Positions 1 through 10,639 of a stretch of 10,639 nt of DNA are shown here, piece by piece. The stretch is from assembly GCA_031431875.1 (NCBI GenBank), contig JANPEF010000032.1, forward strand, positions 1 to 10,639, read 5' to 3'. The notes beneath the pieces were generated by a model. It ran no database searches. It was not told the DNA's origin and saw only the letters and a list, made by a program, of their open reading frames with translations. Every line of letters starts with the position of its first letter. The first letter of the stretch is position 1. The stretch is from Candidatus Eiseniibacteriota bacterium (GTDB lineage Bacteria; Eisenbacteria; RBG-16-71-46; DASYSL01). Made by a program: the position numbers and the translations under genes.

Positions 1-1137
1 CAGGTGCGCGGGATCGCGATCGACGCTGCGGGCGACGTGTACATCGCCGATTCGGGGAACTTTCGCATCCAGAAGTTCGATGCGGCCGGCAACTTCCTGG
101 CGAAGTGGGGCACGGTGGGTAGCGGTGACGGGCAGTTGAACGTCCCGACCAGCGTCGCCATCGATCCCTCGGGAAATGTCTACGTCTGCGACGTCTCCAA
201 CAGCCGCATCCAGAAGTTCACGTCGACCGGAACCTATCTCGCCCAGTGGGGCTCGTTCGGAAGCGGCAACGGGCTGTTCCAGTTCCCGTGGGCCGTCGGG
301 ATCGACGCGGTCGGCAACGTCTACGTCACCGACGAGGTCAACAACCGCATCCAGAAGTTCACCGCTGGCGGCGGCTACCTCACGCAGTGGGGAACGGCGG
401 GCACGGGTGACGGGCAGTTCAACGCTCCGATCTCGCTGAGCATCGACACCGAAGCGAACGTCTACGTCATGGACTCGGGGAATTTCCGCGTCCAGAAGTT
501 CAGTGGCGCCGGAGTCGCCGAGTCGCGCTGGCCGATGAACTACGCGTTCGACCTCCGAGGCCCGGGCGTGAACAACAGCTTCTTCACGCCTGCCGGCATC
601 GGCGCGGCATCGGGGCCGTACGTCTACGTCGCCCAGGCCTCCGGCATCGTTCGCGCGCGGTCGTTCGGCGGCGCCACGGTCGAGCTCTATGGCTCACCCG
701 GGAGCGGAGACGGGCAGTTCAACCTCCCCGGCGGGGTCGCCACGGACGCGGCCGGCCTGGTCTACGTCGCCGACACGAACAACAACCGCATCCAGAAGCT
801 GTCGGCGAGCGGCGTGTTCATCACGAAGTGGGGATCCCTGGGCTCGGGCGACGGCCAGTTCAACCTGCCCACCGCCATTGCGGTCGACCCCTCGGGGAAC
901 GTGTTCGTCGTCGATGAGGTGAACCGCCGCATCCAGAAGTTCACGTCGAACGGGGCCTACCTCCTGAAGTGGGGATCCCTCGGCTCCGGAAACGGACAAT
1001 TCAACTTCCCCACCGGGATCGCCATCGACCGGAAACCAGACCGCAGAGTCAATCCTGGAGACGGTCGACCGAATGCTGGATGCAGGCGTGGACGCACCGA
1101 CGGAGGCGCAGCAGCTGGCCCTGGAAAACATCTATGA
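1..1137 (+). CDS. NHL-repeat (beta-propeller) protein; 5'-partial, and probably 3'-truncated at ~1029
   Basis: Frame 1 is open from base 1 (QVRGIAID...). About 7 tandem 47-aa units of the form P-x-GIAxDxxGNVYVxDxxNxRIQKFxxxGxYLxxWGxxGSGDGQF match the NHL consensus. The eighth unit stops after GIAID (1029) and is followed by a non-repeat tail ending at TGA 1135-1137. Confidence 0.9.
   Translation, partial: QVRGIAIDAAGDVYIADSGNFRIQKFDAAGNFLAKWGTVGSGDGQLNVPTSVAIDPSGNVYVCDVSNSRIQKFTSTGTYLAQWGSFGSGNGLFQFPWAVGIDAVGNVYVTDEVNNRIQKFTAGGGYLTQWGTAGTGDGQFNAPISLSIDTEANVYVMDSGNFRVQKFSGAGVAESRWPMNYAFDLRGPGVNNSFFTPAGIGAASGPYVYVAQASGIVRARSFGGATVELYGSPGSGDGQFNLPGGVATDAAGLVYVADTNNNRIQKLSASGVFITKWGSLGSGDGQFNLPTAIAVDPSGNVFVVDEVNRRIQKFTSNGAYLLKWGSLGSGNGQFNFPTGIAIDRKPDRRVNPGDGRPNAGCRRGRTDGGAAAGPGKHL
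10..1029 (+). repeat. Coding tandem repeat of ~141 bp (NHL units)
   Basis: cgcatccagaagtt recurs at 64, 205 and 346 (141-nt spacing). Related copies occur at 787 and 928, and variants of gacgggcagttcaac recur. Units 4-5 (~430-730) are divergent. Confidence 0.85.
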
Positions 1138-1513
1138 GGCCGCATGTCGTTGGCTTGGGCGTAGGTCGAATGAGGTACGCCTCGAAACCGCGACGCGCCC
1201 CGAGATGAGCGGGGACCTCCTCCAGCACTTCGGTGAGGAGATGTGGCGGCTGTATCGCGAACCGGCAAAGCGCCTGGGCTACAACGCGACCTACTTTCGG
1301 GAGTTGCTCGAGGACCGTGGGCCGGTGGAAACCGCAGTCTTTCTCGCTGGAGCCCCCGGTCACCATGAGGGCCTGACGACGCTCTACGAGCTCGGCGCAC
1401 TCAATCTCTCTGTCGAAGCGCTGATCCTTCGCGATCCGTGGTGCCATTACTTCGAACCGAAGACCTTGGCCGCGGCGCGGAAGAAGCTCGCGGCGCTCGG
1501 TTATTCGGAGTAG
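1073..1513 (+). CDS. Small helical hypothetical protein (146 aa from ATG 1073, or 102 aa from ATG 1205)
   Basis: The C-terminal ~100 aa (GYNATYFRELLEDRGPVETA...EGLTTLYELGALNLSVEALIL..PW..YF....LAAARKKLAALGY) matches a conserved unnamed domain I recognise from standalone proteins and from fusions with DUF262/GmrSD, HNH and caspase-like proteins. GGAG lies at 1057-1060. Codon usage is less GC3-biased than in the flanking genes. Confidence 0.75.
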   Translation: MLDAGVDAPTEAQQLALENIYEAACRWLGRRSNEVRLETATRPEMSGDLLQHFGEEMWRLYREPAKRLGYNATYFRELLEDRGPVETAVFLAGAPGHHEGLTTLYELGALNLSVEALILRDPWCHYFEPKTLAAARKKLAALGYSE

Positions 1514-1637
1514 CCGCCGCAACTTCGGGAGCCTGCCGCCGCATCCAGTCGAACTTCCGGTTTGGCCGCTCGCGTCTCCGCACCCCCAATCCCCACCCCC
1601 GCACCATGCATTCCGCACTCCCCCGCATTGCAATTCC

Positions 1638-1664
1638 TCAAGTCCCATTGCGTTTTGCCGATAC
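1638..1664 (+). promoter_or_regulatory. Putative sigma28 (FliA/SigD/WhiG family) promoter
   Basis: TCAA (1638-1641)-N15-GCCGATAC (1657-1664) against the consensus TAAA-N15-GCCGATAA. Spacing is exact, and the site lies 80 nt upstream of ATG 1745 in the AT-richest part of the intergenic region. Confidence 0.6.
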
Positions 1665-1730
1665 CGGCCCTGGGTAGGTCTCGTTCCCGTCTCCCACGAG
1701 GGGGGGCGGACGGGCCCGCACCAACCACCA

Positions 1731-1737
1731 GGGAGGA
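1731..1737 (+). promoter_or_regulatory. Ribosome-binding site GGGAGGA
   Basis: GGAGG at 1732-1736, 8 nt before ATG 1745. Confidence 0.8.
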
Positions 1738-1744
1738 TCTGGCA

Positions 1745-2260
1745 ATGCACCGAACGCTGCGCATTCTGACCGCGCTGGCCGTGACGGTGGCCGGACTGGG
1801 GAGCTGCGCGCTGGCCTTCGCGGAGGGGGACGTCACTGTCGCCCTGACCGCGCACCGCATCATGGTGAGCCAGGGCAAGGAAGCCCGTCTGCCTGCCGAA
1901 CAGGCCAAGCCCGGCGACGTCATCGAATACCGCGCCACCTACACCAACCACGGCGGCTCCGCCGTCCGTGACCTGCAGGCGACGCTCCCCGTTCCGGCCG
2001 GTCTCGAGTACCTGCCGAAGACCGCTTCGCCCGTGAAGCTCCTGGCCAGCCTCGACGGCAAGTCGTTCGCGCCGACGCCTCTGACGCGTCGGGTGAAGCT
2101 CGCGAACGGCAAGACCGAGCTGCGTGAAGTTCCCGCCTCCGAGTACCGCGCGTTGCGCTGGTCCATCGGGGCGCTGGGCGCCAACGCGGATCGCACGGTC
2201 GTCGCGCGCATGCGCGTCGCTCCGCTCGAAACCGTTGCCACCGTCGTCCCTGCGCGCTAG
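1745..2260 (+). CDS. Secreted single-domain DUF11-like (TIGR01451 conserved-repeat-like) protein, 171 aa
   Basis: The likely start is ATG 1745 (strong RBS), not 1562. Sec signal peptide MHRTLRILTALAVTVAGLGSCALAFA|E. DUF11-type motif AKPGDVIEYRATYTNHG...LPVPAGLEYLP, followed by the family-typical SLDGKSF.P.PL and EYRALRW. Confidence 0.85.
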   Translation: MHRTLRILTALAVTVAGLGSCALAFAEGDVTVALTAHRIMVSQGKEARLPAEQAKPGDVIEYRATYTNHGGSAVRDLQATLPVPAGLEYLPKTASPVKLLASLDGKSFAPTPLTRRVKLANGKTELREVPASEYRALRWSIGALGANADRTVVARMRVAPLETVATVVPAR

Positions 2261-2297
2261 TCGCGCCGTCCAAAGAACGCCAATCGGGAGTACCGAC

Positions 2298-4892
2298 ATG
2301 ACGCTTCAGCCGACGGTCCGCGCCACGCGCGCGGTCCGAACCGCCCTGTCGTGTGCCGCGGGCCTGCTTGCCGCCGCCACGATCCTTGCCTTCGCCGCCG
2401 ACCGGGCTTTCGCCCAGCCGCCGGTGGGCACGTCGATCGGGAACCAGGCCACGGCCTCGTATCTCGACGCGTCGTCCACGTCGCGCACGGTGACGTCGAA
2501 CCTGGTCACCACCATCGTCCAGCAGGTGGCCGGCTTTACGCTGACCGCCGACGGTGCCGTCGTCGCCGCTCCGGGCGGCCAGGCCGTCTTCCCGCACGTC
2601 CTCACCAACACCGGCAACGGTCCGGATACGTTCCCCCTCACGCTCGTCAACCTGGCGGGCGACGACTTCGACCTGGCCGGACTCGCGATCTATCCCGACG
2701 TCGACGGCAACGGCGTGCCGGACGTCTACGTCCCGCTCGTCACGACCGGGCTCCTGGCCGCCGGGGCGTCGTTCCGCTTTGTGGTCGCGGGCAACGTGCC
2801 GGGGGCGCAGCTCGCGGCCCAGGTGGCGCAGGTGCGGGTCAGCGCGCTCTCGGCGTTCGACAACGCGCAGACGGCGTTCAACACCGACGTCGTCACCGTC
2901 ACCGGCAACGCGGTGCTCAACGTGACCAAGGGCATCGACGTGACCAACGGCGCGTCGCCCTCGGGTCCGCGCACGTACACGATCTCGTACACCAACGCCG
3001 GCAACTCGACGGCGACGAACTTCCGGATCACCGACGTCGTGCCCGCGGGCATGACCTACGTGCCGGGCAGCGGTCGCTGGAGCACCACGGGTGCTGCGGT
3101 CCTCACCGACCTCAACCTCGCCGACGCCCAGGGCGTGGCACCCAACACGGTCATCTACGACTACGGCGTCACCGGTGCGGCGACCGTGACCGCGGTGATC
3201 AACCGCGTGCCGGCCGGTGCCAGCGGAACGCTGACCTTCCAGGTCAACGTCGACGCGGGCCTGGCGCCGCAGACGATCAACAACCTCGGCACGTTCGTCT
3301 ACAACGACGGCGTCGGCCCGGTCGGTCCGTTCACGACCAACGCCGCTCCGTTCACCGTCGACCCGAGCGCGTCGCTCACCTTCGTCGGCCAGGTCATTCC
3401 CTCGGCCACGCAGGGTGCGACCGTCGCGTTCTCGAACGTCCTGACCAACACCGGCAACGACGTCGACGTGTTCGACGTGACGATCGGCGCCGGCACCTTC
3501 CCGGGTGGCACGTCGTACTCGCTGTTCCAGGCGGACGGCGTCACGCCGCTCACCGACTCGGACGGCAACTTCGTCGCCGATACGGGCCCGGTCCTGCCGG
3601 GGGCTTCGGTCACCATCGTGCTGCGTGCCTCGCTGCCGCCGTCGGCGACGGGCGGGCCGTACCAGGTGCAGAAGATCGCCACCTCGCTGAACGACCCCGG
3701 CCAGTCGGCCACCGCGACCGACGTGCTGACCACGATCACGGCCAGCACCGTCGACGTGACGAACAACGCCCCGCTGCCGGGCGGCCTCGGCTTCGGCCCC
3801 GGTCCGGAAGGCGTGGCCCAGGTCACGCTGAACGCCAACCCGGGTGCGACCGTGCGCTTCACGCTGCACGTCAACAACACCAGCACGGTGACGGACAACT
3901 ACGACATGTCGTCGAGCGCGGTTCCGGGCGGCTGGACGGTCGTGTTCCGTGACGCCGGAAACGCGATCCTCACCAACACCGGTCCGATCGCGCCGGGCGG
4001 CAACGCGCTCGTCTACGCCGACGTCACCGTCCCCGCGGGCTACGCGGCGGGCACGGTGAGCGTCAACTTCACCGCCGCATCGTCGGTGTCGGGTGCGGAC
4101 GACACGATCCACGACGCGGTCACGGTCCTGACCGTGCGCAGCCTGCAGCTCATCCCGAACAACTCGGCGCAGGTGATTCCGGGCGGGATCGTGGTCTACA
4201 CGCACCTGCTCACGAACGCCGGAAACGTCGTCGAAGGCGACGGCGTCGGTTCGTTCACGGCCGTGACGGCGGGAAATAACCAGGCGGGCTGGAGCACCGC
4301 GTTGTACTACGACGCTAACCTTTCCGGCGTCTTCGACGCCGGAGACGGGCCGTTCACCGACCTGACCTTCGTCGGCGGCCTGGCTCCGGGTGCGACCGTG
4401 CGCATCTTCGCGCAGGTGTTCGCCCCGGCCGGCGCGGCGCTCGGCCAGGTCAACACGACGACCGTCACCGCCACGACCAGCAACGTCGGCTACGTCTCGG
4501 CCGTCGCCGCTCCGACGTCGGCGTTCGACGTGACCACGGTGATCAACGGGCAGCTTCAGCTCGTCAAGCGCCAGGCGCTCGACGCGAACTGCAACGGAAT
4601 CGCCGACGGTCCGTTCGACGTGATCGACATCACGACCGGCGCGATCCCGGGCGCGTGCCTGCGCTACGAGATCGTCGTCACCAACGTCGGGACCACGACG
4701 GTCACCAACGTGGTGGTCAGTGATGCGACGCCGGCGAACACGACCTACTCGGGCGTGGTCGCAGCGAGCACCTCGCAGGGATCGATCGTCACGCCGGCCA
4801 ACGGCGCGACGGGAATGATCACCGCGACGGTGGGCACGCTCGCACCGGGCCAGTCGGCCACGATCACGGTCGGCATCCGCATCGATCCGTAG
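2298..4892 (+). CDS. Secreted multi-Ig/DUF11 domain protein, 864 aa; candidate major filament subunit
   Basis: ATG 2298 with GGGAG at 2286-2290; signal peptide ending AFA|Q40. The mature protein has an N-terminal hairpin (GTSIGNQATASY...TSNLV), four Ig-like repeats (xFxHxLTNTGN type; ~2520-2900, 3366-3738, 3745-4130, 4134-4545), one complete DUF11 domain (2910-3359) and a C-terminal incomplete DUF11 domain (4551-4889). It is T/V/G/A/N-rich with strongly C/G-ending codons. Confidence 0.9.
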   Translation: MTLQPTVRATRAVRTALSCAAGLLAAATILAFAADRAFAQPPVGTSIGNQATASYLDASSTSRTVTSNLVTTIVQQVAGFTLTADGAVVAAPGGQAVFPHVLTNTGNGPDTFPLTLVNLAGDDFDLAGLAIYPDVDGNGVPDVYVPLVTTGLLAAGASFRFVVAGNVPGAQLAAQVAQVRVSALSAFDNAQTAFNTDVVTVTGNAVLNVTKGIDVTNGASPSGPRTYTISYTNAGNSTATNFRITDVVPAGMTYVPGSGRWSTTGAAVLTDLNLADAQGVAPNTVIYDYGVTGAATVTAVINRVPAGASGTLTFQVNVDAGLAPQTINNLGTFVYNDGVGPVGPFTTNAAPFTVDPSASLTFVGQVIPSATQGATVAFSNVLTNTGNDVDVFDVTIGAGTFPGGTSYSLFQADGVTPLTDSDGNFVADTGPVLPGASVTIVLRASLPPSATGGPYQVQKIATSLNDPGQSATATDVLTTITASTVDVTNNAPLPGGLGFGPGPEGVAQVTLNANPGATVRFTLHVNNTSTVTDNYDMSSSAVPGGWTVVFRDAGNAILTNTGPIAPGGNALVYADVTVPAGYAAGTVSVNFTAASSVSGADDTIHDAVTVLTVRSLQLIPNNSAQVIPGGIVVYTHLLTNAGNVVEGDGVGSFTAVTAGNNQAGWSTALYYDANLSGVFDAGDGPFTDLTFVGGLAPGATVRIFAQVFAPAGAALGQVNTTTVTATTSNVGYVSAVAAPTSAFDVTTVINGQLQLVKRQALDANCNGIADGPFDVIDITTGAIPGACLRYEIVVTNVGTTTVTNVVVSDATPANTTYSGVVAASTSQGSIVTPANGATGMITATVGTLAPGQSATITVGIRIDP

Positions 4893-4904
4893 TCCCAGGC
4901 GGTG

Positions 4905-4929
4905 GGGGGCGCGCCGGTTGCGCGCCCCC
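4905..4929 (+). terminator. GC-rich stem-loop after the major-subunit gene (partial terminator or mRNA stabiliser)
   Basis: gggggcgcgc-cggtt-gcgcgccccc is a perfect 10-bp stem with a 5-nt loop, 12 nt after TAG 4892. No strong U-tract follows. Confidence 0.55.
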
Positions 4930-5001
4930 TCTCCGCGTCCTTTCACCAATGGCGCCGGCGCCGGAGGCCTCCTCCGGCGGGCGGAGCCTCGGGATTTGTC
5001 C

Positions 5002-8000
5002 ATGCTCGGACGCGCGCATCGTTCCTTCGGGAGTGGCGACGTTCCGGACCCGCGTTCGCGCGGGGGCCGGGGCGTCGCCGCGCGCGTTTCTGGCGGTCTG
5101 CGGCGTCTTCGCGCGTACGCGCTCGCGGGCGCGCTCGCGTACGCGTACGTGTACGCGCGCGACACCGCGTACGCCGCGCCGCCGATCGGCGGGGCGATCG
5201 ACAACACCGCCACGGGCACCGGGCGCTTCGTCGCCGGCGATGTCCCGTTCACCCAGAACTCGAACACCGTCCGGGCCCGCGTGACCGCTCCGCCGCCGCC
5301 GCCCGTGCTCGCGTTCTTCTCCGGCTCCGACTTCGCGACCGTCGTGCGGTTCGGCGCTCCCGGAGCCCCGCTGCACGTCCAGGCGATCGCCCCGGGCTGC
5401 GACGCCCGGCCCGGCGTGCGCGACACGATCGCGGTCACGATCGCCTCGAGCCGCGCGCTCGACGTCGAGACCGTGGTCGCCATCGAGACCGGCCCGGCGA
5501 CCGGCGTGTTCCGCGTCGAGCCTGCGCTGCCCACGACCGGCGGCACGTTCGGCACGTCGTCGTCGGGCGACCGGATCCTCGCGACGATGCGCGGCGACGT
5601 CGTGACCGCGACGCTGTTCGGCTGCGGCGCGCCGCGCACCGATGCCGTGCTGTGGGTCGAGCCCAGCGGCGTGGTCTTCGCGGCGGTCGGCGGCGCGGTC
5701 GTCCCCGGCGCGCGGATCTCGCTGATCGACGTGACCGGCGCGGGTAACGGCGGCGACGCCGGCGGCCTGGCGCGCGTGTTCCAGCTCGACGGCGTGACTG
5801 TGGCCGCGAATCCGGCTGTGTCGGACGCGACGGGGCGGTTCTCGTTCCCGCTCGCGGCGGCCAGCACGTACCGGCTCGACGTCGTGGCGCCGGGCGGCTG
5901 GGCGTATCCGTCCAGTGTTGCGCCGGGCGCACTGCCGCCGGGGATGCTGGTCGACCCCGCGGGTTCGTACGGCGCTTCGTTCGTCACGACGGACCCGCTG
6001 GGGCCGGTCGTCTTGGACTTGCCGCTCGATCGGCTCGCCGGCGACGCGCTGTTCGTCGAGACCGACGCGCTGCGGCCCGTGGCCGAACTCGGGGATGCGG
6101 TCGACTTCGCGGTGCGCGTCGCGAACCGCACGGCGGGGCCGATCGACTCGATCACCGTCGAGAACAAGACGCCGATCGGGTTTGGATTTGTTTCGGGGAC
6201 TTTGCGAAGGATTGGGACGACGGCGGGCGCTTCGGCGGCCGCGGTGCGGAAGGGCGATGGCCTTCTTGCATCTTCCGGCGCTTCGCGCTCCGCGCTCGCG
6301 GCCGAAGCTCTTGTGCCGCTGCCGGGCGGAGACTCCCGCTCCTTCCGCTTCGCTGTTGGTTCCCTCGCCTCCGGCGAGGTAGCTGAACTCCGCTTCCGCA
6401 CCCGCGTGGGCGCGGGTGCGGTGGACGGCCCGGCCGTGAACCGTGCATGGGCGTTCGCGCCGCCGGCCATCACGTCGAACACCGCGACCGCGGTCGTCGA
6501 GCTCACGGCCGGTCCGTTCGCGATCGAGGGCACGATCCTCGGCACCGTGTTCGTCGACGCCGACGGCGACGGCCGGCCCGGCCGCGGCGAGCCCGCGCTG
6601 CCGGGCGTGCGGCTGTATCTCGACGACGGCACGTACGCGGTGACCGACGCCGACGGGCGCTACAGCCTCTACGGCATCGCGCCGCGCACGCGCGTGCTCA
6701 AGCTCGACGCGACGACGCTGCCGCCGGGAGCGCGCCCCGTGTCGACCGACGCGCGCGATGCGGAGACGCCGGGCCTGCGCTTCGTCGACCTCACGCTCGG
6801 CGATTTCCAGCGCGCCGACTTCGCGATCGCCGCCGACAGCGCGTTGATCGCCGCGTCCGAGGCGCGCCGGGCGGCGCTGGCCAAGACCGGTCGCGGCGAG
6901 CTCGACCGGGCGCTCGTGCGCGGCGCCAACCCGCTCGCGCCCGTGCGGCCCACGCCGGATCCGCGCTCGCTCCCGGCCGAGGGCATCACGACCGGTGAGG
7001 CTCGCCTGCCGCTGTTCGACGGCGCGCCCTCGTCGCTCGCGACGTCGCGCCGCAAGGACGCCGACGAGGGCGACGGCGCGCTCGAGTCGCGCATCGCCAC
7101 GCTCGGACCCGCGCCCGGGTTCGTGGACTTCGCCGCGGTCGACACCGTGGGCGCGACGCAGGTCGACGTGCGGGTGAAGGGCCCGTTCGGCGCGCTGTTC
7201 GGGCTTTCGGTGGGCGGCCAGATCGTGCCCGCGAGCCGCGTCGGCCGCAAGGTATCCTCGCCCGAGGCGAACGCCGAGGCCTGGGAGTTCGTCGGCGTGG
7301 CGCTGAAGCCCGGTACCAACACGCTCGAGCTCACCTCGATCGGCGGCCGCGACGGCGCGGCGACGGTGAACGTGCGCGCGATCGTCGTCGCACCCGATCG
7401 CCCCGCTCGGCTTTCGATCGACGCGCCCGCGCGGGTCGCCGCCGACGGCTTTGCGCCCGCGACGCTGACGCTCGCGCTCACCGACGCCGCCGGCGTGCCG
7501 GTCGCCGCGCGCACGCTGGTCACGCTCGAGGCGTCGCTCGGCCGCCTGCTCGCCGACGACCTCGATCCGACGACCGCGGGCACGCAGCTCGCGCTCGAGG
7601 GCGGGTTCGCGACGGTGGACCTGGCGGGACAGGGCGCGCCGGGTGTGGCCGACCTCACCGCGCGCACCGCTGCCGGGCTCGAGGCGACCGCGCGCGTTTC
7701 ATTGGTGCCGGACCTCCGGCCCACGCTCGCGGTCGGTTCGCTCGAGGGGGTGGTCGCGCTCAGCGGATCTCCGGGCGGCCGCGCGCCGGCCGACGTCCTG
7801 CCCCGGCCGCTGTTCGAGGCCGCGCCGGTCGCGTTCGTGTCGCAGAGCTCCGACGGCGACCAGATGGCGGCGATCCGCGGCTCGGCCTTCTATAAAGGAC
7901 GGGTCAAGGACGACATCCTGCTCACCCTGGGCTACGACTCGGAGCGGGCACCCCACGTCCGCGCGTTCCGCGACATCCAGCCCGACGCGTACTACCCGCT

Positions 8001-10203
8001 CTACGGCGACGCCGCGGTGCGTGGGTTCGAAGCGCAGTCGACGCGGCCGCTGTACGCGCGCGTCGATCGCCGCGGCGCCTCGCTCCTGTACGGCGACTTC
8101 GTGACGCCGGGCATGGGCGGCGGGCGCACGCTCGGCGGCTACAGCCGGAGCTTGAACGGCGTGGTCGGCAGCTACGAGGACGCGCGCGTTCGCTTCGCCG
8201 GCTGGTCGAGCCGCGAGCGCTCCACCCGCCAGGTCGACGAGCTGCGCGGGCGCGGCGTCTCGGGGCCGTACGCGTTGACCATCGCGCCGCTGGTCGACGG
8301 CAGCGAGCGCGTCGAGGTCGTGGTGCGCGACCGCAGCCAGACGGCGGTCGTGCTCTCGGCCGAGTCGCGGCAGCGCTTCGTCGACTACACGATCGACGCG
8401 CTCACCGGCGAGATCCTGCTCAAGGCGCCGCTGCCCAGCGTCGACTCCGACCTGAATCCGGTGTCCCTGCGCGTCACCTACGAGATCGAGGCCGGCGGCG
8501 AGGCCTACTGGACGACCGGGTTCGAGGGCAGCGTGCGCCGCGGTCGCGTGGAAGTCGGTGGCACCTACGTCGACGACCACGATCCGATCGCGGCTGGCTC
8601 GATCCGCAGCGTCTTCGCCGCGGCGAAGACCGGCGCGCGCTCGGGGCTCGAAGCCGAGTTCGCGACCACGCGCGAGAACGCGACCGGCGACAGCGACATC
8701 GGCGGCCGCGTCGAGTGGCGCCACGCCGCGACCGGTGTCGAGGCGCGCCTCTACGCCGGCGCGACCGGCGAGGAGTTCTTCAACCCGACGTCGGGCTACG
8801 GTGCGGGGCGTCTCGAAGGGGGCGGGCGGATGACCGCGGTCTTGAACCCCCGCCTGCGGTTCCATGGCCAGGCGATCTTCACCGGCGACACCAGGGGTGG
8901 CGAGCGGCGCGGCGGCGTGCTCGTCGCCGTCGAGCGGAAGCTGGGCGAGCGCTGGCGCGGCGAGCTGGGCCTGCGCCTGGCCGACGGGCGGACCGGCGAC
9001 AAGGTCGACGAGGACTTCGCGGCACTCGTGCGCGCGCGGGTGCTCTTGAGCGTGCCGTCGGTGCGTGCGCTCGACGCGTACCTCGAGCTCGAGCAGGACA
9101 CGCGGGATTCGGATCGCCGGATGGCGGCGCTGGGTGCGGAAATGCTCCTCATGAAGCGAGTCCGGGCCTACGGCCGCCATGAGTTCATCGGCGGGCGGCT
9201 CGAGCCGTGGGCGCTCACGGGCGCGACCGCGAACCACTCGACCGTCTTCGGAATCGACGCGAACGTCACGCCCGAGGCGCGCGTGTTCAGCGAGTACCGG
9301 GTCGACGGCGCGATCGGCGGCCGCGATGCCGAGGCCGTGATCGGGCTGCGCAATGCGTGGCGCCTGGCGGGCGGCGCGCGTCTGACCGGCTCGCTCGAGC
9401 GCGTGCAGCCGGTGGGCGTGACGCCGGACACGACCGTCGGCTCGATTGCCGACCCGGGCGCCACGTTCGCCATGGCGCTGGGCATCGACTACGCGACGAG
9501 CCCGTGGTGGAAGGGCTCGGCCCGCGCCGAATACCGCACGGGGAAGACCAGCGACGCCGTCCTCGGCACGTTCGCCGGCACGCTGCGCATCGACCGGGCG
9601 TGGAGCGCGCTGGCGCGCAACCACCTGTCGCTGATGCGCGAACACGGCGGCGGTCGCAGCGATCGCGAGCGGCTCCAGATTGGCGTCGCCTACCGGCCCG
9701 GCGACGTGTGGGACGGCGTCGCGCGCTACGAGTTCCGCTGGGACCGCGACGGTGGTGCCGATCCCGCGCCGGGCGAACTGCCCGAGGCCGACCTGCGGCG
9801 CACCGCGCACGTGTTCTCGGCACACGGCACGGGACCGTTGGCGAAGAAGACGACCGGGTCACTGGCGTGGGCCGGCAAGTGGGTGAACGAGCGGACGGAT
9901 GGGATTGCCACCGCGACGTCGGCGCAGTGGGTCCACGGCCGCGCCTCGTGGTCGCTGGGCACGCGCTATGACGCCAGCCTCCTGGCCAGCTTCCTCACCG
10001 GCACGCACAGCCGCCGCGGCGGCGTCGGCGCCGAGCTGGGCCGCCGCCTGGCACCCGGCGTGTGGCTGTCGGCGGGCTACAACCGCTTCGGCTACTCCGA
10101 CGACGAGCTCACGGGCGAGGAGTACACCCGGCAGGGCGTGCATTTGAGGGTGCGGGCGAAGTTCGATGAGAAGCTGCTGGGGCTGGGTGGGGGGGCGAAG
10201 TGA
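5002..10203 (+). CDS. Large outer-membrane protein: N-terminal hairpin, Ig/carboxypeptidase-regulatory-like domains, DUF11, SdrD-B-like, Big-like domain and a large C-terminal beta-barrel (1733 aa from ATG 5002; the ORF track uses TTG 4918)
   Basis: Signal-like region ending AYA|A at ~5175. SdrD-B motif GTILGTVFVDADGDG...EPALPGVRLYL...TDADGRYS at 6526-6725. DUF11-like domain at 6049-6505. Big_1-like ADGFAPATLTLALTDAAGVPV. From ~7870 there are many alternating-hydrophobic strands (AFYKGRVKDDILLTLGYDS, YYPLYGD, LLYGDF, WLSAGYN, GVHLRVRAKF). The start is uncertain, and TTG 4918 lies inside the hairpin. Confidence 0.85.
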   Translation: MLGRAHRSFGSGDVPDPRSRGGRGVAARVSGGLRRLRAYALAGALAYAYVYARDTAYAAPPIGGAIDNTATGTGRFVAGDVPFTQNSNTVRARVTAPPPPPVLAFFSGSDFATVVRFGAPGAPLHVQAIAPGCDARPGVRDTIAVTIASSRALDVETVVAIETGPATGVFRVEPALPTTGGTFGTSSSGDRILATMRGDVVTATLFGCGAPRTDAVLWVEPSGVVFAAVGGAVVPGARISLIDVTGAGNGGDAGGLARVFQLDGVTVAANPAVSDATGRFSFPLAAASTYRLDVVAPGGWAYPSSVAPGALPPGMLVDPAGSYGASFVTTDPLGPVVLDLPLDRLAGDALFVETDALRPVAELGDAVDFAVRVANRTAGPIDSITVENKTPIGFGFVSGTLRRIGTTAGASAAAVRKGDGLLASSGASRSALAAEALVPLPGGDSRSFRFAVGSLASGEVAELRFRTRVGAGAVDGPAVNRAWAFAPPAITSNTATAVVELTAGPFAIEGTILGTVFVDADGDGRPGRGEPALPGVRLYLDDGTYAVTDADGRYSLYGIAPRTRVLKLDATTLPPGARPVSTDARDAETPGLRFVDLTLGDFQRADFAIAADSALIAASEARRAALAKTGRGELDRALVRGANPLAPVRPTPDPRSLPAEGITTGEARLPLFDGAPSSLATSRRKDADEGDGALESRIATLGPAPGFVDFAAVDTVGATQVDVRVKGPFGALFGLSVGGQIVPASRVGRKVSSPEANAEAWEFVGVALKPGTNTLELTSIGGRDGAATVNVRAIVVAPDRPARLSIDAPARVAADGFAPATLTLALTDAAGVPVAARTLVTLEASLGRLLADDLDPTTAGTQLALEGGFATVDLAGQGAPGVADLTARTAAGLEATARVSLVPDLRPTLAVGSLEGVVALSGSPGGRAPADVLPRPLFEAAPVAFVSQSSDGDQMAAIRGSAFYKGRVKDDILLTLGYDSERAPHVRAFRDIQPDAYYPLYGDAAVRGFEAQSTRPLYARVDRRGASLLYGDFVTPGMGGGRTLGGYSRSLNGVVGSYEDARVRFAGWSSRERSTRQVDELRGRGVSGPYALTIAPLVDGSERVEVVVRDRSQTAVVLSAESRQRFVDYTIDALTGEILLKAPLPSVDSDLNPVSLRVTYEIEAGGEAYWTTGFEGSVRRGRVEVGGTYVDDHDPIAAGSIRSVFAAAKTGARSGLEAEFATTRENATGDSDIGGRVEWRHAATGVEARLYAGATGEEFFNPTSGYGAGRLEGGGRMTAVLNPRLRFHGQAIFTGDTRGGERRGGVLVAVERKLGERWRGELGLRLADGRTGDKVDEDFAALVRARVLLSVPSVRALDAYLELEQDTRDSDRRMAALGAEMLLMKRVRAYGRHEFIGGRLEPWALTGATANHSTVFGIDANVTPEARVFSEYRVDGAIGGRDAEAVIGLRNAWRLAGGARLTGSLERVQPVGVTPDTTVGSIADPGATFAMALGIDYATSPWWKGSARAEYRTGKTSDAVLGTFAGTLRIDRAWSALARNHLSLMREHGGGRSDRERLQIGVAYRPGDVWDGVARYEFRWDRDGGADPAPGELPEADLRRTAHVFSAHGTGPLAKKTTGSLAWAGKWVNERTDGIATATSAQWVHGRASWSLGTRYDASLLASFLTGTHSRRGGVGAELGRRLAPGVWLSAGYNRFGYSDDELTGEEYTRQGVHLRVRAKFDEKLLGLGGGAK

Positions 10204-10639
10204 TGCGGCATTTGAGGCCAGGCCTGGTGCTCGCTGCGCTCGCACTGACATTGCTCGCGCTGACATCGAACAGCGCCCGCGCACAAGTCGTGCGCGGGTA
10301 CACGGCCCGGTACAGCACGAATGGAAACGGCGACATCGCTGTCGTCGGCAACACGCTCATGTCCTGCACCGGAGGCGGCAACGGCGCGGGCAGTTGCAAC
10401 CAGGCGCGCGCCGGACCCGGCAATGCGCTGAACAACAACGACTGGAGCATGGTCTACGTCGACGTCGACGGGGACGGCTCGACGATCAACTCCAGTACGG
10501 CAACGCTGGCGTTGCCGGCCGGTGCGACCGTGCTGTGGGCGGGGCTGTACTGGGGTGGATACTCGGCAGGCGCTTCGCGGAATCAGCTCCGCTTCGGCAC
10601 GCCCACCGCCGGTTACGCGACGCTCACCGCAACGCAGCT
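10203..10639 (+). CDS. Secreted adhesin-like protein (DUF3344-like N-terminal domain typical of DUF11 adhesins), 3'-partial
   Basis: Not in the ORF track because it runs off the window. ATG 10203 overlaps the upstream TGA (TGATG). Translation: MRHLRPGLVLAALALTLLALTSNSARA|QVVRGYTARYSTNGNGDIAVVGNTLMSCTGGGNGAGSCNQARAGPGNALNNNDWSMVYVDVDGDGSTINSSTATLALPAGATVLWAGLYWGGYS... The motifs GNTL, NNN.W.M.YVDVD.D..T.NSS.A.L.LP.G..V.WAGLYW are those seen at the N-terminus of large DUF11-repeat surface proteins. Confidence 0.85.
   Translation, partial: MRHLRPGLVLAALALTLLALTSNSARAQVVRGYTARYSTNGNGDIAVVGNTLMSCTGGGNGAGSCNQARAGPGNALNNNDWSMVYVDVDGDGSTINSSTATLALPAGATVLWAGLYWGGYSAGASRNQLRFGTPTAGYATLTATQ

Follow-up and report, generated by a model that had tools for sequence, protein, structure and literature searches.

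In this work, we describe a conserved four-gene operon, Z-A-B-C, which is found, up to the start of C, on a contig of 10,639 nucleotides (JANPEF010000032.1 of assembly GCA_031431875.1, from a Candidatus Eiseniibacteriota bacterium), the whole of which is here called the window. From the sequence of gene A, an original prediction had proposed that its product polymerises head to tail, the N-terminal hairpin of one subunit completing the last, truncated domain of another and being bound to it by a lysine-asparagine isopeptide bond. A is not a homopolymer system by itself. We regard it as reasonably likely that the operon encodes a surface-fibre system of diderm bacteria, in which an immunoglobulin (Ig)-like domain of the CnaA type, belonging to the CLIPPER/DUF11 family, is split between chains, with C as tip, A as shaft and B as anchor, and is probably locked by isopeptide bonds. 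The first eight strands of this domain, which include the Lys and the catalytic Asp, end proteins A and C; its last strands, which include the Asn, begin the mature proteins A and B. Head-to-tail completion, as originally put forward, is supported by comparative evidence, namely the split itself, the conservation of the residue triad and the existence of natural single-chain fusions. To speak of a first natural tag/catcher filament would be an overstatement, given the BsaA system discussed below.

The divided domain of protein A

Gene A, numbered here from M1 at nucleotide (nt) 2298, encodes, in this order, a signal peptide, a donor hairpin, an Ig-like domain, a complete CLIPPER/DUF11 domain, about four further Ig-like domains and a truncated CLIPPER/DUF11 domain, the acceptor. 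Its features are as follows:

2298..4892, + strand: gene A, putative shaft subunit of 864 amino acids (aa), from Pfam, NCBIfam, the homologue alignment and an AlphaFold2 model
2298..2414, + strand: putative signal peptide, residues 1-39, with cleavage between AFA and QPP, read from the sequence and the alignment
2415..2519, + strand: donor hairpin, residues 40-74, with N49 at nt 2442-2444, from conservation and hhalign
2889..3365, + strand: internal complete CLIPPER/DUF11 domain, residues 198-356, with K211, D246 and N329, from fold match and conserved triad
4515..4889, + strand: acceptor, truncated CLIPPER/DUF11 domain, residues 740-864, from DUF11 profile and hhalign
within 4515..4889, + strand: acceptor residues K757 (nt 4566-4568) and D809 (nt 4722-4724), and the Cys pair C765/C787

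The motifs, residues and coordinates on which the original prediction was built were all found to be correct. In the internal domain, these are LNVTK with K211 (nt 2928), RITD with D246 (nt 3033), the strand TLTFQVNVD (residues 311-319) and the segment containing N329 (residues 327-354, nt 3276-3359); in the terminal domain, LQLVK with K757 (nt 4566), VVSD with D809 (nt 4722) and the C-terminus TITVGIRIDP, followed by the stop codon; at the N-terminus, the segment containing N49 (residues 47-74, nt 2436-2519). The number of lysines in A is exactly three, at positions 211, 459 and 757. The protein contains no LPXTG motif and ends with ...GIRIDP-stop.

The AlphaFold2 model of the whole protein has a predicted local distance difference test score (pLDDT) of 81.9; within it, residues 10-33, in the signal peptide, form a helix at pLDDT below 50, and conservation among homologues begins at residue 41. 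Matches to PF01345 (47.6 bits, cut-off 24.6) and TIGR01451 (63.4 bits, cut-off 24) assign A to the DUF11 group, and Pfam recognizes in it only domains of the DUF11 clan and NPCBM_assoc. Searches with the whole protein were not informative: Foldseek returned only generic matches to tandem Ig proteins (axoneme proteins, PrgB, titin), and a sequence search of the PDB gave nothing useful. More specific results were obtained with the internal domain. By VIA-align, residues 204-356 of the model align with the CnaA-type domain of the pilin BcpA (3kpt) with a Z score of 14.9 and a root-mean-square deviation (rmsd) of 2.5 A over 135 residues, and with SpaD, RrgB, PilA/PilB, EbpB, GBS80 and CNA with Z scores of 12-14. 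The modelled internal domain thus has the CnaA-type fold of isopeptide-bearing pilin domains.

The truncation of the terminal domain, as originally noticed, is real, according to profile, hhalign and strand-count evidence. The Pfam DUF11 match of residues 785-861 covers positions 16-83 of the 114 in the profile. When aligned by hhalign to the internal complete domain, which spans 157 columns, the C-terminal domain falls on columns 13-121 (E value 7.8e-10), and the N-terminal segment on columns 126-151 (E value 0.014): the two pieces thus tile one domain, with a gap of four columns between them. DSSP analysis of the model counts 8 strands in the last domain, as opposed to 11 in the internal one, and residues 46-74 are modelled, in the monomer, as four short strands with a pLDDT of about 84. 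All three residues of the triad, Lys, Asp and Asn, are carried in one chain by the internal domain; this is not true for the terminal domain, whose chain breaks off ahead of the strands with the Asn, at position 83 of the 114 in the profile.

An ungapped alignment of 28 residues between the N-terminal hairpin and the internal segment had also been offered as evidence. Its 8 identities are confirmed, and by BLOSUM62 score the N-terminal window comes second among the 782 windows of A, but the identity is not above chance: in the open reading frames (ORFs) of the genome, 465 of 4.64 million windows reach at least 8 identities, many of them with higher scores. Since 8 identities out of 28 are at chance level, the case rests on other evidence. 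The donor motif, PP.G..I.N.A, occurs only twice in the 18,860 ORFs of the genome, and the two occurrences are the mature N-termini of A and B.

Relatives of A were collected in several ways. A word-indexed search yielded 872 relatives at E values up to 1e-5, the best 120 of which are 846-894 aa long. An exhaustive search of 1.84 billion representative proteins yielded 596 at E values up to 1e-30, which suggests a large unannotated family. Scanning species-representative genomes produced 135 relatives, from which 80 loci were kept, and all ORFs of these loci were searched with hidden Markov models (HMMs) of the donor (A residues 40-78) and of the acceptor (A residues 745-864). The split architecture is kept in these homologues, which belong to several phyla: in 68 out of 78 A-like ORFs the acceptor ends at most 3 residues from the stop codon, the other 10 being cut by contig ends, runs of N or frameshifts.

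Conservation of the three residues assigned to the bond, N49, K757 and D809, holds as well, the triad being intact in 312 out of 318 relatives, with identities to A down to about 36%. Two of the six exceptions are truncated at the N-terminus, one is due to an alignment shift ('IINAQ') and three lack both K and D but retain N; in the whole set, neither the acceptor K nor the acceptor D is lost without the other. The internal triad, K211/D246/N329, is intact in 307 of the same 318 proteins. In 29 close homologues all six residues are invariant, and all C-termini read ...RI[ND/VF/NY]P. Among 69 complete homologues, residues I47, G48, N49, A51, D57, S67, N68 and V74 of the hairpin are invariant or nearly so, and the donor hairpin motif is the most conserved stretch of A; K459, present in 48 of the 69, is not conserved. 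In a mean-field direct-coupling analysis (DCA) of 315 sequences (effective number 181), the K757-D809 pair is the 32nd strongest of all couplings. The three homologues devoid of the acceptor Lys and Asp (L050:9854-12520, P0147 and P0268) feature I/N, L/T and L/L at these positions, and keep both the donor Asn and the split; judging by their sequences, they may be natural 'bond-less' variants.

Natural fusions and partner proteins

Proteins in which the two halves of the domain lie in one chain were sought in two sets, the 150 best representatives and 19 further, long relatives, and 20 long proteins were examined. In 13 of these the halves are contiguous, with 21 junctions in total. Four proteins (P0127, P0128, P0277 and P0278) are tandem chains of two to five A units each. 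In their 12 A-A junctions, a loop of 3-12 residues separates the last acceptor strand from the hairpin, behind which comes domain 1: examples are the strand 'VITFGVQIG', the loop 'AGTPAGSAS', which resembles a mature N-terminus, and the hairpin 'VDNQTSATY...TSNTVILVV'. At the aligned positions, all 12 junctions have K and N, nine have D and three have E. Nine further proteins (P0279-P0287), from four source collections, are A-(half A)-B chains, in which A is followed by a hairpin, half an A and, finally, B with its barrel at the end. As no signal peptide is found at the A-B junctions, these proteins are not read-through artefacts. The Asp is present in 9 out of 9 of them, and the hairpin position is Asn in 6 and Asp in 2, one being misaligned. 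The fusions thus show that the hairpin supplies the end which the acceptor domain lacks, and that an acceptor is partnered by the N-terminus of the following unit, not by its own.

A piece of P0128 spanning a junction has a sub-threshold match to DUF7927 (20.2 bits, cut-off 31), which crosses the junction and reaches position 112 of 132 in the profile, while the acceptor of the window alone stops at position 95 of 132; the contrast is suggestive, no more. P0127 and P0128 also start with an orphan donor hairpin behind the signal peptide, and end in repeats, 'DCDGIVGSDDLTVVTSKFGRE', which we take to be dockerin-like.

The other genes of the operon, and their relevant parts, are located as follows:

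1745..2260, + strand: gene Z, 171 aa, with a weak DUF11 match
5002..10203, + strand: gene B, 1733 aa, with a presumed ATG start at 5002
5176..5283, + strand: donor hairpin of B, residues 59-94, APPIGGAIDN...SNTVRARV, with N68 at nt 5203-5205, from the donor motif
7837..10200, + strand: predicted C-terminal beta-barrel region of B, residues 946-1733, from an AlphaFold2 model
10200..10639, + strand: gene C, first 146 codons, cut at the contig end; its GTG overlaps the stop codon of B, and a signal peptide is present
contig C91, 97902-99974 (1498-3570 of locus L002), - strand: C-terminal 691 residues of the probable continuation of gene C, in an ORF which runs off the contig end

Protein B consists of a signal peptide, a donor hairpin, a Pro-rich linker, Ig-like domains and a giant C-terminal beta-barrel. 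A B homologue lies directly 3' of A in 63 of the 80 loci; in 14 loci at most 1,510 nt follow A, and 3 are frameshift or locus-end cases. The N-terminus of the homologues, 'APPAGTPI-D/V-N-x-A ... SN-x-V ... VQ', is found right after the A-x-A signal-peptide site, and the donor HMM matches 58 out of 61 B N-terminal parts. In the B protein of the window, the linker APPPPPV comes straight after the hairpin, which therefore does not belong there to a following domain.

The last 788 residues of B are modelled as more than 30 long strands with a small beta-sandwich insert (pLDDT 76.8, predicted template modelling score 0.66), and the C-terminus, ...RVRAKF-DE, resembles a beta-signal and is conserved across homologues as '...RLRFKF-DE'. 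The top Foldseek matches of this region are all outer-membrane barrels (LptD, with an E value of 2.8e-8, SlpA/SDBC, MtrB and BtuB), and its 50 best matches are LptD, SlpA, MtrB and TonB-dependent receptors; the template modelling (TM) score of about 0.2 indicates a different size class. The region is thus predicted to form a very large outer-membrane barrel. Pfam detects in B no barrel family of the autotransporter or intimin/invasin type, only a weak match to the Ig domain Invasin_D3 (23 bits, cut-off 33). In three Eisenbacteria loci (L026, L030 and L031) a second gene for a B-like giant barrel, about 35% identical to B, is found several kb upstream of the operon, which suggests paralogous systems.

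Protein C is a large adhesin-like protein with a terminal acceptor and no donor hairpin. Thirty-six further ORFs of this kind, 285-3,484 aa long and usually encoded by the third gene, were found in the 80 loci, all without a donor and with an acceptor at the very end. Their acceptors feature the Asp in 36 cases out of 36, the Lys within a consensus, 'L...K.V', kept in at least 90%, and a Cys pair. When six C homologues were scanned with Pfam, four had a terminal DUF11 match, from position 2 to position 84 (or 83) of the 114 in the profile, one a terminal match to the related DUF7507 and one no terminal match; the internal DUF11 domain of one of the scanned proteins, in comparison, spans positions 1-113. 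In the genome under study, the ORF on contig C91 ends with LALTK ... IAIAD ... VTFRVRVQ-stop, and its DUF11 match covers profile positions 2-84 of 114. Judging from synteny in other loci, this ORF and the start of C in the window (contig C32) are probably pieces of one gene, split by an assembly gap. An ORF of 931 codons with internal DUF11-like domains is found on a further contig of the same genome (C119:2233-5025, + strand, locus L003); the acceptor HMM matches its residues 539-614 (E value 5e-8), it has neither a terminal acceptor nor a donor, and probably encodes an unrelated DUF11 surface protein.

In 78 out of 80 loci the gene immediately upstream of A is a Z homologue, and 79 Z sequences could be aligned. 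Z is a secreted protein, with a signal peptide and a single, truncated DUF11-like Ig domain, weakly matched by Pfam DUF11 (E value 2.3e-4), which ends at the same point as the acceptors. Thr is found at the position of the catalytic Asp, in a conserved 'atLPiP', and, unlike A, the protein is rich in Lys and Arg. Searching the ESM Atlas with Z returned only clusters of hypothetical proteins. Z may be a chaperone, a cap or a periplasmic protein which holds donor hairpins, but these roles are guesses.

A model of assembly, its alternatives and related systems

The scheme that we infer comprises insertion in trans, bond formation, an order of assembly, secretion through B and, possibly, some role of Z. 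After Sec export, the terminal acceptor of C would take the hairpin of an A protein, and the acceptor of each A that of the next A, so that the shaft would consist of A repeated n times. The hairpin of B would finally close the chain, tying the fibre to the outer membrane through its barrel of more than 30 strands. C, having only an acceptor, would thus be the tip, A, with both donor and acceptor, the shaft, and B, with only a donor, the base; the polarity would be that of chaperone-usher pili, tip first, with growth at the base. In each completed domain K757 and N49 would be set beside D809, and K757 would attack N49, with D809 as the acid. A K757-N49 isopeptide bond probably forms in this manner, by analogy with known isopeptide domains; being spontaneous, it would give a covalent fibre without a sortase.

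Several observations weigh against this scheme. The likeness of the hairpin to the last strands of the internal domain is weak (hhalign E value 0.014, pairwise identity at chance level), and the isolated hairpins of A, B and two homologues gave no DUF11 match in Pfam at E values up to 10, in a search in which the internal hairpin, used as positive control, also failed. In the DCA, couplings of the hairpin with the acceptor and with domain 1 are both at most 1.5, thus at noise level, since the best acceptor-domain 1 pairs, taken as a null, reach 1.6. As to the bond, K and D are both absent in 3 A proteins; the donor Asn of B is found in 46 out of 52 aligned homologues, Ser taking its place in 4 and Ala in 1, with a gap in 1; and the aligned Lys position of the A-B fusions is Glu in 7 out of 9 and Lys in only 2: the bond is thus not universal. 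No Pfam usher family is matched by B and no usher is found among its 50 best Foldseek matches, a distant relation being nevertheless possible. We also count on this side the transcript data: in run X20, a sediment RNA library, contigs of 151-340 nt, about 85-95% alike, fall on Z (1986-2316), A (2470-3619) and B (8293-8745), but they derive from relatives, may reflect DNA carry-over, and give a weak hint of transcription of the relatives' operon, not of expression of this gene.

The same architecture might be held together by donor-strand complementation alone, without a covalent bond, like the fibres of chaperone-usher systems or of TasA, K757, D809 and N49 being kept for folding or packing. 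We consider this rather unlikely, although the three A proteins without K and D do keep the split and the Asn, Ser or Ala replaces the Asn in 5 out of 52 B donors, and BsaA oligomers are described as stable in sodium dodecyl sulfate even without the bond (PMC11580942). The terminal triad, intact in 312 out of 318 relatives, is in fact kept more tightly than the internal one (307 out of 318), K and D disappear only as a pair, the Asp is found in 36 out of 36 C acceptors, there are only three lysines in all of A, and the domain family forms the bond in the 9IFR structure (PMC12617251). Quite unlikely, in our view, is that completion takes place in cis, or not at all, with the hairpin lying on domain 1 or on the last domain of its own chain and A being a monomeric fibrillar adhesin or envelope protein. 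The presence of donor-only B and acceptor-only C proteins is difficult to reconcile with it, since these orphans need a partner in trans; moreover, the hairpin behind each acceptor in the fusions belongs to the following unit, and that of B in the window leads straight into a Pro-rich linker. A string of seven domains would, however, be long enough to loop back, the confident structure of the hairpin in the monomer model (pLDDT about 84) implies that it packs on something in the same chain, and covariation gave the acceptor no advantage.

The mature N-terminus of A and B might also be a targeting or secretion signal, read by the barrel or by another export machine, in which case the truncated domain would simply be an Ig fold in a shorter, stable form. 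Short N-terminal export signals do occur in other systems, and the motif is both placed directly behind the signal peptide, in A as well as in B, and the most conserved stretch of A. We nevertheless find this explanation highly improbable: C must be exported too, yet lacks the motif; in single-chain relatives the motif is internal, right after the acceptors, where it cannot be an N-terminal signal; and no reason would be left for the conservation of K and D in the acceptor.

For the covalent fibre assembled in trans, precedents can be found in part in several known systems. The crystal structure 9IFR of the CLIPPER/DUF11 domain of fibrillar adhesins features a Lys-Asp-Asn isopeptide bond, K715/D748/N806 (PMC12617251). 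The likeness lies in the Pfam family, in the Lys/Asp/Asn logic (here K211/D246/N329) and in the occurrence in Gram-negative surface proteins; the equivalence of the residues, suggested by their order and spacing, is putative. In that case the domain is whole, the bond is made within one chain and the domains follow one another in a long polypeptide, whereas here the terminal domain is cut after the eighth strand, the strands with the Asn being at the N-terminus of another chain. The CLIPPER survey covers intramolecular bonds only, and the word 'split' is not used there (PMC12617251). When a profile of 27 internal domains was compared to PDB sequences, neither 9IFR nor any pilin was matched.

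The nearest mechanism in print is that of C. perfringens BsaA, a member of the TasA family, whose N-terminal segment enters the beta-sheet of the next subunit and is locked there by a spontaneous Asn-Lys bond (N35/K74/E56); this 'donor-strand exchange and lock' is backed by N35A, E56A and K74A mutants, and some family members are without the triad (PMC11580942). Strand exchange and an acid-catalysed Lys-Asn lock made without sortase are thus common to both systems. BsaA differs in coming from a Gram-positive organism, in its unrelated TasA-like fold and in its single-domain subunit, and has neither an outer-membrane barrel partner nor a tip, shaft and anchor set of donor-only and acceptor-only proteins. 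No TasA/camelysin-type family was detected in A by Pfam. In the archaeal threads formed by Saci_0406, donor-strand complementation is accompanied by an apparently enzyme-free isopeptide bond, which links the N-terminal amino group, that of Asp24, to Asn57 of subunit n+2 (PMC9715654). Here too the likeness consists in head-to-tail complementation with an apparent bond between subunits; the fold is another one, with no Pfam domain, and the archaeon has no outer membrane.

In chaperone-usher pili (Fim/Pap) a single strand is donated, non-covalently, and a PapD-like chaperone and a PapC/FimD usher are required. An acceptor-only tip, shaft subunits with a donor and an incomplete Ig fold, and a barrel encoded in the same operon would be shared with the present system; the differences are that here the barrel protein bears a donor hairpin, and that the subunit has about seven domains. 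Architecture and fusions would fit an Ig fold which, left unfinished in one subunit, is made whole by the N-terminal extension of the next, and no PapD-like chaperone family was found in the window ORFs scanned with Pfam. Sortase pilins are joined by a sortase, which links the threonine of LPXTG to the lysine of a pilin motif. They include the best structural matches of the internal domain (BcpA, SpaD, RrgB and GBS80, with Z scores of 12-15 and an rmsd of 2.3-2.9 A over about 135 residues), and likewise form covalent fibres of CnaA/CnaB-type domains with Lys-Asn bonds. They are, however, Gram-positive, whereas the organisms considered here are diderm and A is without LPXTG; no sortase was found by Pfam in the window ORFs, to which the search was confined. 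SpyTag/SpyCatcher and SnoopTag/SnoopCatcher are man-made splits of Gram-positive CnaB-type domains, in which, as proposed here, an isopeptide domain is cut and a short reactive peptide docks on the remainder, bonding to it spontaneously. In the present case the split, to all appearances natural, affects a CnaA-type CLIPPER domain and would serve polymerisation.

No description of a split DUF11 fibre was found in the full-text literature, most subscription journals and supplements being outside the search, so that absence is unproven. A paper on haloarchaeal 'tafi' was matched only through the word DUF1102, and is irrelevant to DUF11.

If the covalent trans-assembly is correct, outer-membrane bacteria make covalent surface fibres without either a sortase or a classical chaperone and usher, and combine autocatalytic isopeptide bonds with donor-strand complementation, two principles each known on its own. 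The halves of the domain would then provide natural orthogonal tag/catcher pairs of the CnaA type, and would clearly exemplify how a domain can be divided between genes and fused again in evolution. We would go further only tentatively, at somewhat less than even chances, and suggest a further, so far undescribed class of pili in diderms, in which completion in trans takes place without enzymes or adenosine triphosphate (ATP) and is secured by Lys-Asn bonds, the B barrel secretes the fibre and then anchors it, as its last 'subunit', and Z holds the donor hairpins in the periplasm.

Genomic setting and distribution

The window corresponds to an entire contig (C32) of a 3.75-Mb genome, assembled in 166 contigs, and its G+C content ranges from 66 to 76%. 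Close relatives carry the label Candidatus Eisenbacteria. The gene order on the + strand is: 3' part of an NHL-repeat gene, a small unrelated ORF, Z, A, B and the start of C. The features outside the operon are:

1-1137, + strand: NHL-repeat beta-propeller gene, 3' part (Pfam NHL, 155 bits)
about 1190-1513, + strand: small ORF, about 100 aa, situated between the NHL gene and Z where the G+C content is lower (about 66%)

The NHL gene scores 235.7 bits against NCBIfam ScyF, under the cut-off of 350, and its final 35 residues or so are out of character, which would be compatible with a frameshift near the end. The small ORF has a sub-threshold match to Peptidase_C70 (18.8 bits, cut-off 19). Long ORFs on the opposite strand, such as that at 1920-6632 (1570 aa), were taken as by-products of the 70% G+C; Pfam gave no match in the opposite-strand ORFs at 1049-2299 and 1501-1938. 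Scanning of the region 1100-5100 revealed no promoter-like sites, and terminator-like sites in it are no commoner than at shuffle level.

The loci found span Eisenbacteria, Verrucomicrobiota (including a metagenome-assembled genome labelled Akkermansia), Acidobacteriota, Burkholderiales, Steroidobacteraceae, Desulfuromonadales and Nitrospirota, and the operon is thus widespread in phyla of soil, sediment and freshwater. In an even sample of the phylum, whose tally takes in one unpublished genome (G015), gene A was found in 49 out of 201 genomes, and in 29 out of 121 among those of good quality. The sampled genomes which bear it are confined to two families of one order, f1 with 2 out of 8 genomes and f2 with 46 out of 87. 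The system is therefore accessory and patchy within the phylum, yet common to several phyla at 43-55% identity. Sequencing runs containing the DNA of the window are metagenomes of freshwater sediment. The operon is also present in cultured Burkholderiales, among them Collimonas antrihumi DSM 104040, Glaciimonas soli GS1 and Uliginosibacterium silvisoli H3, which makes the system directly testable.

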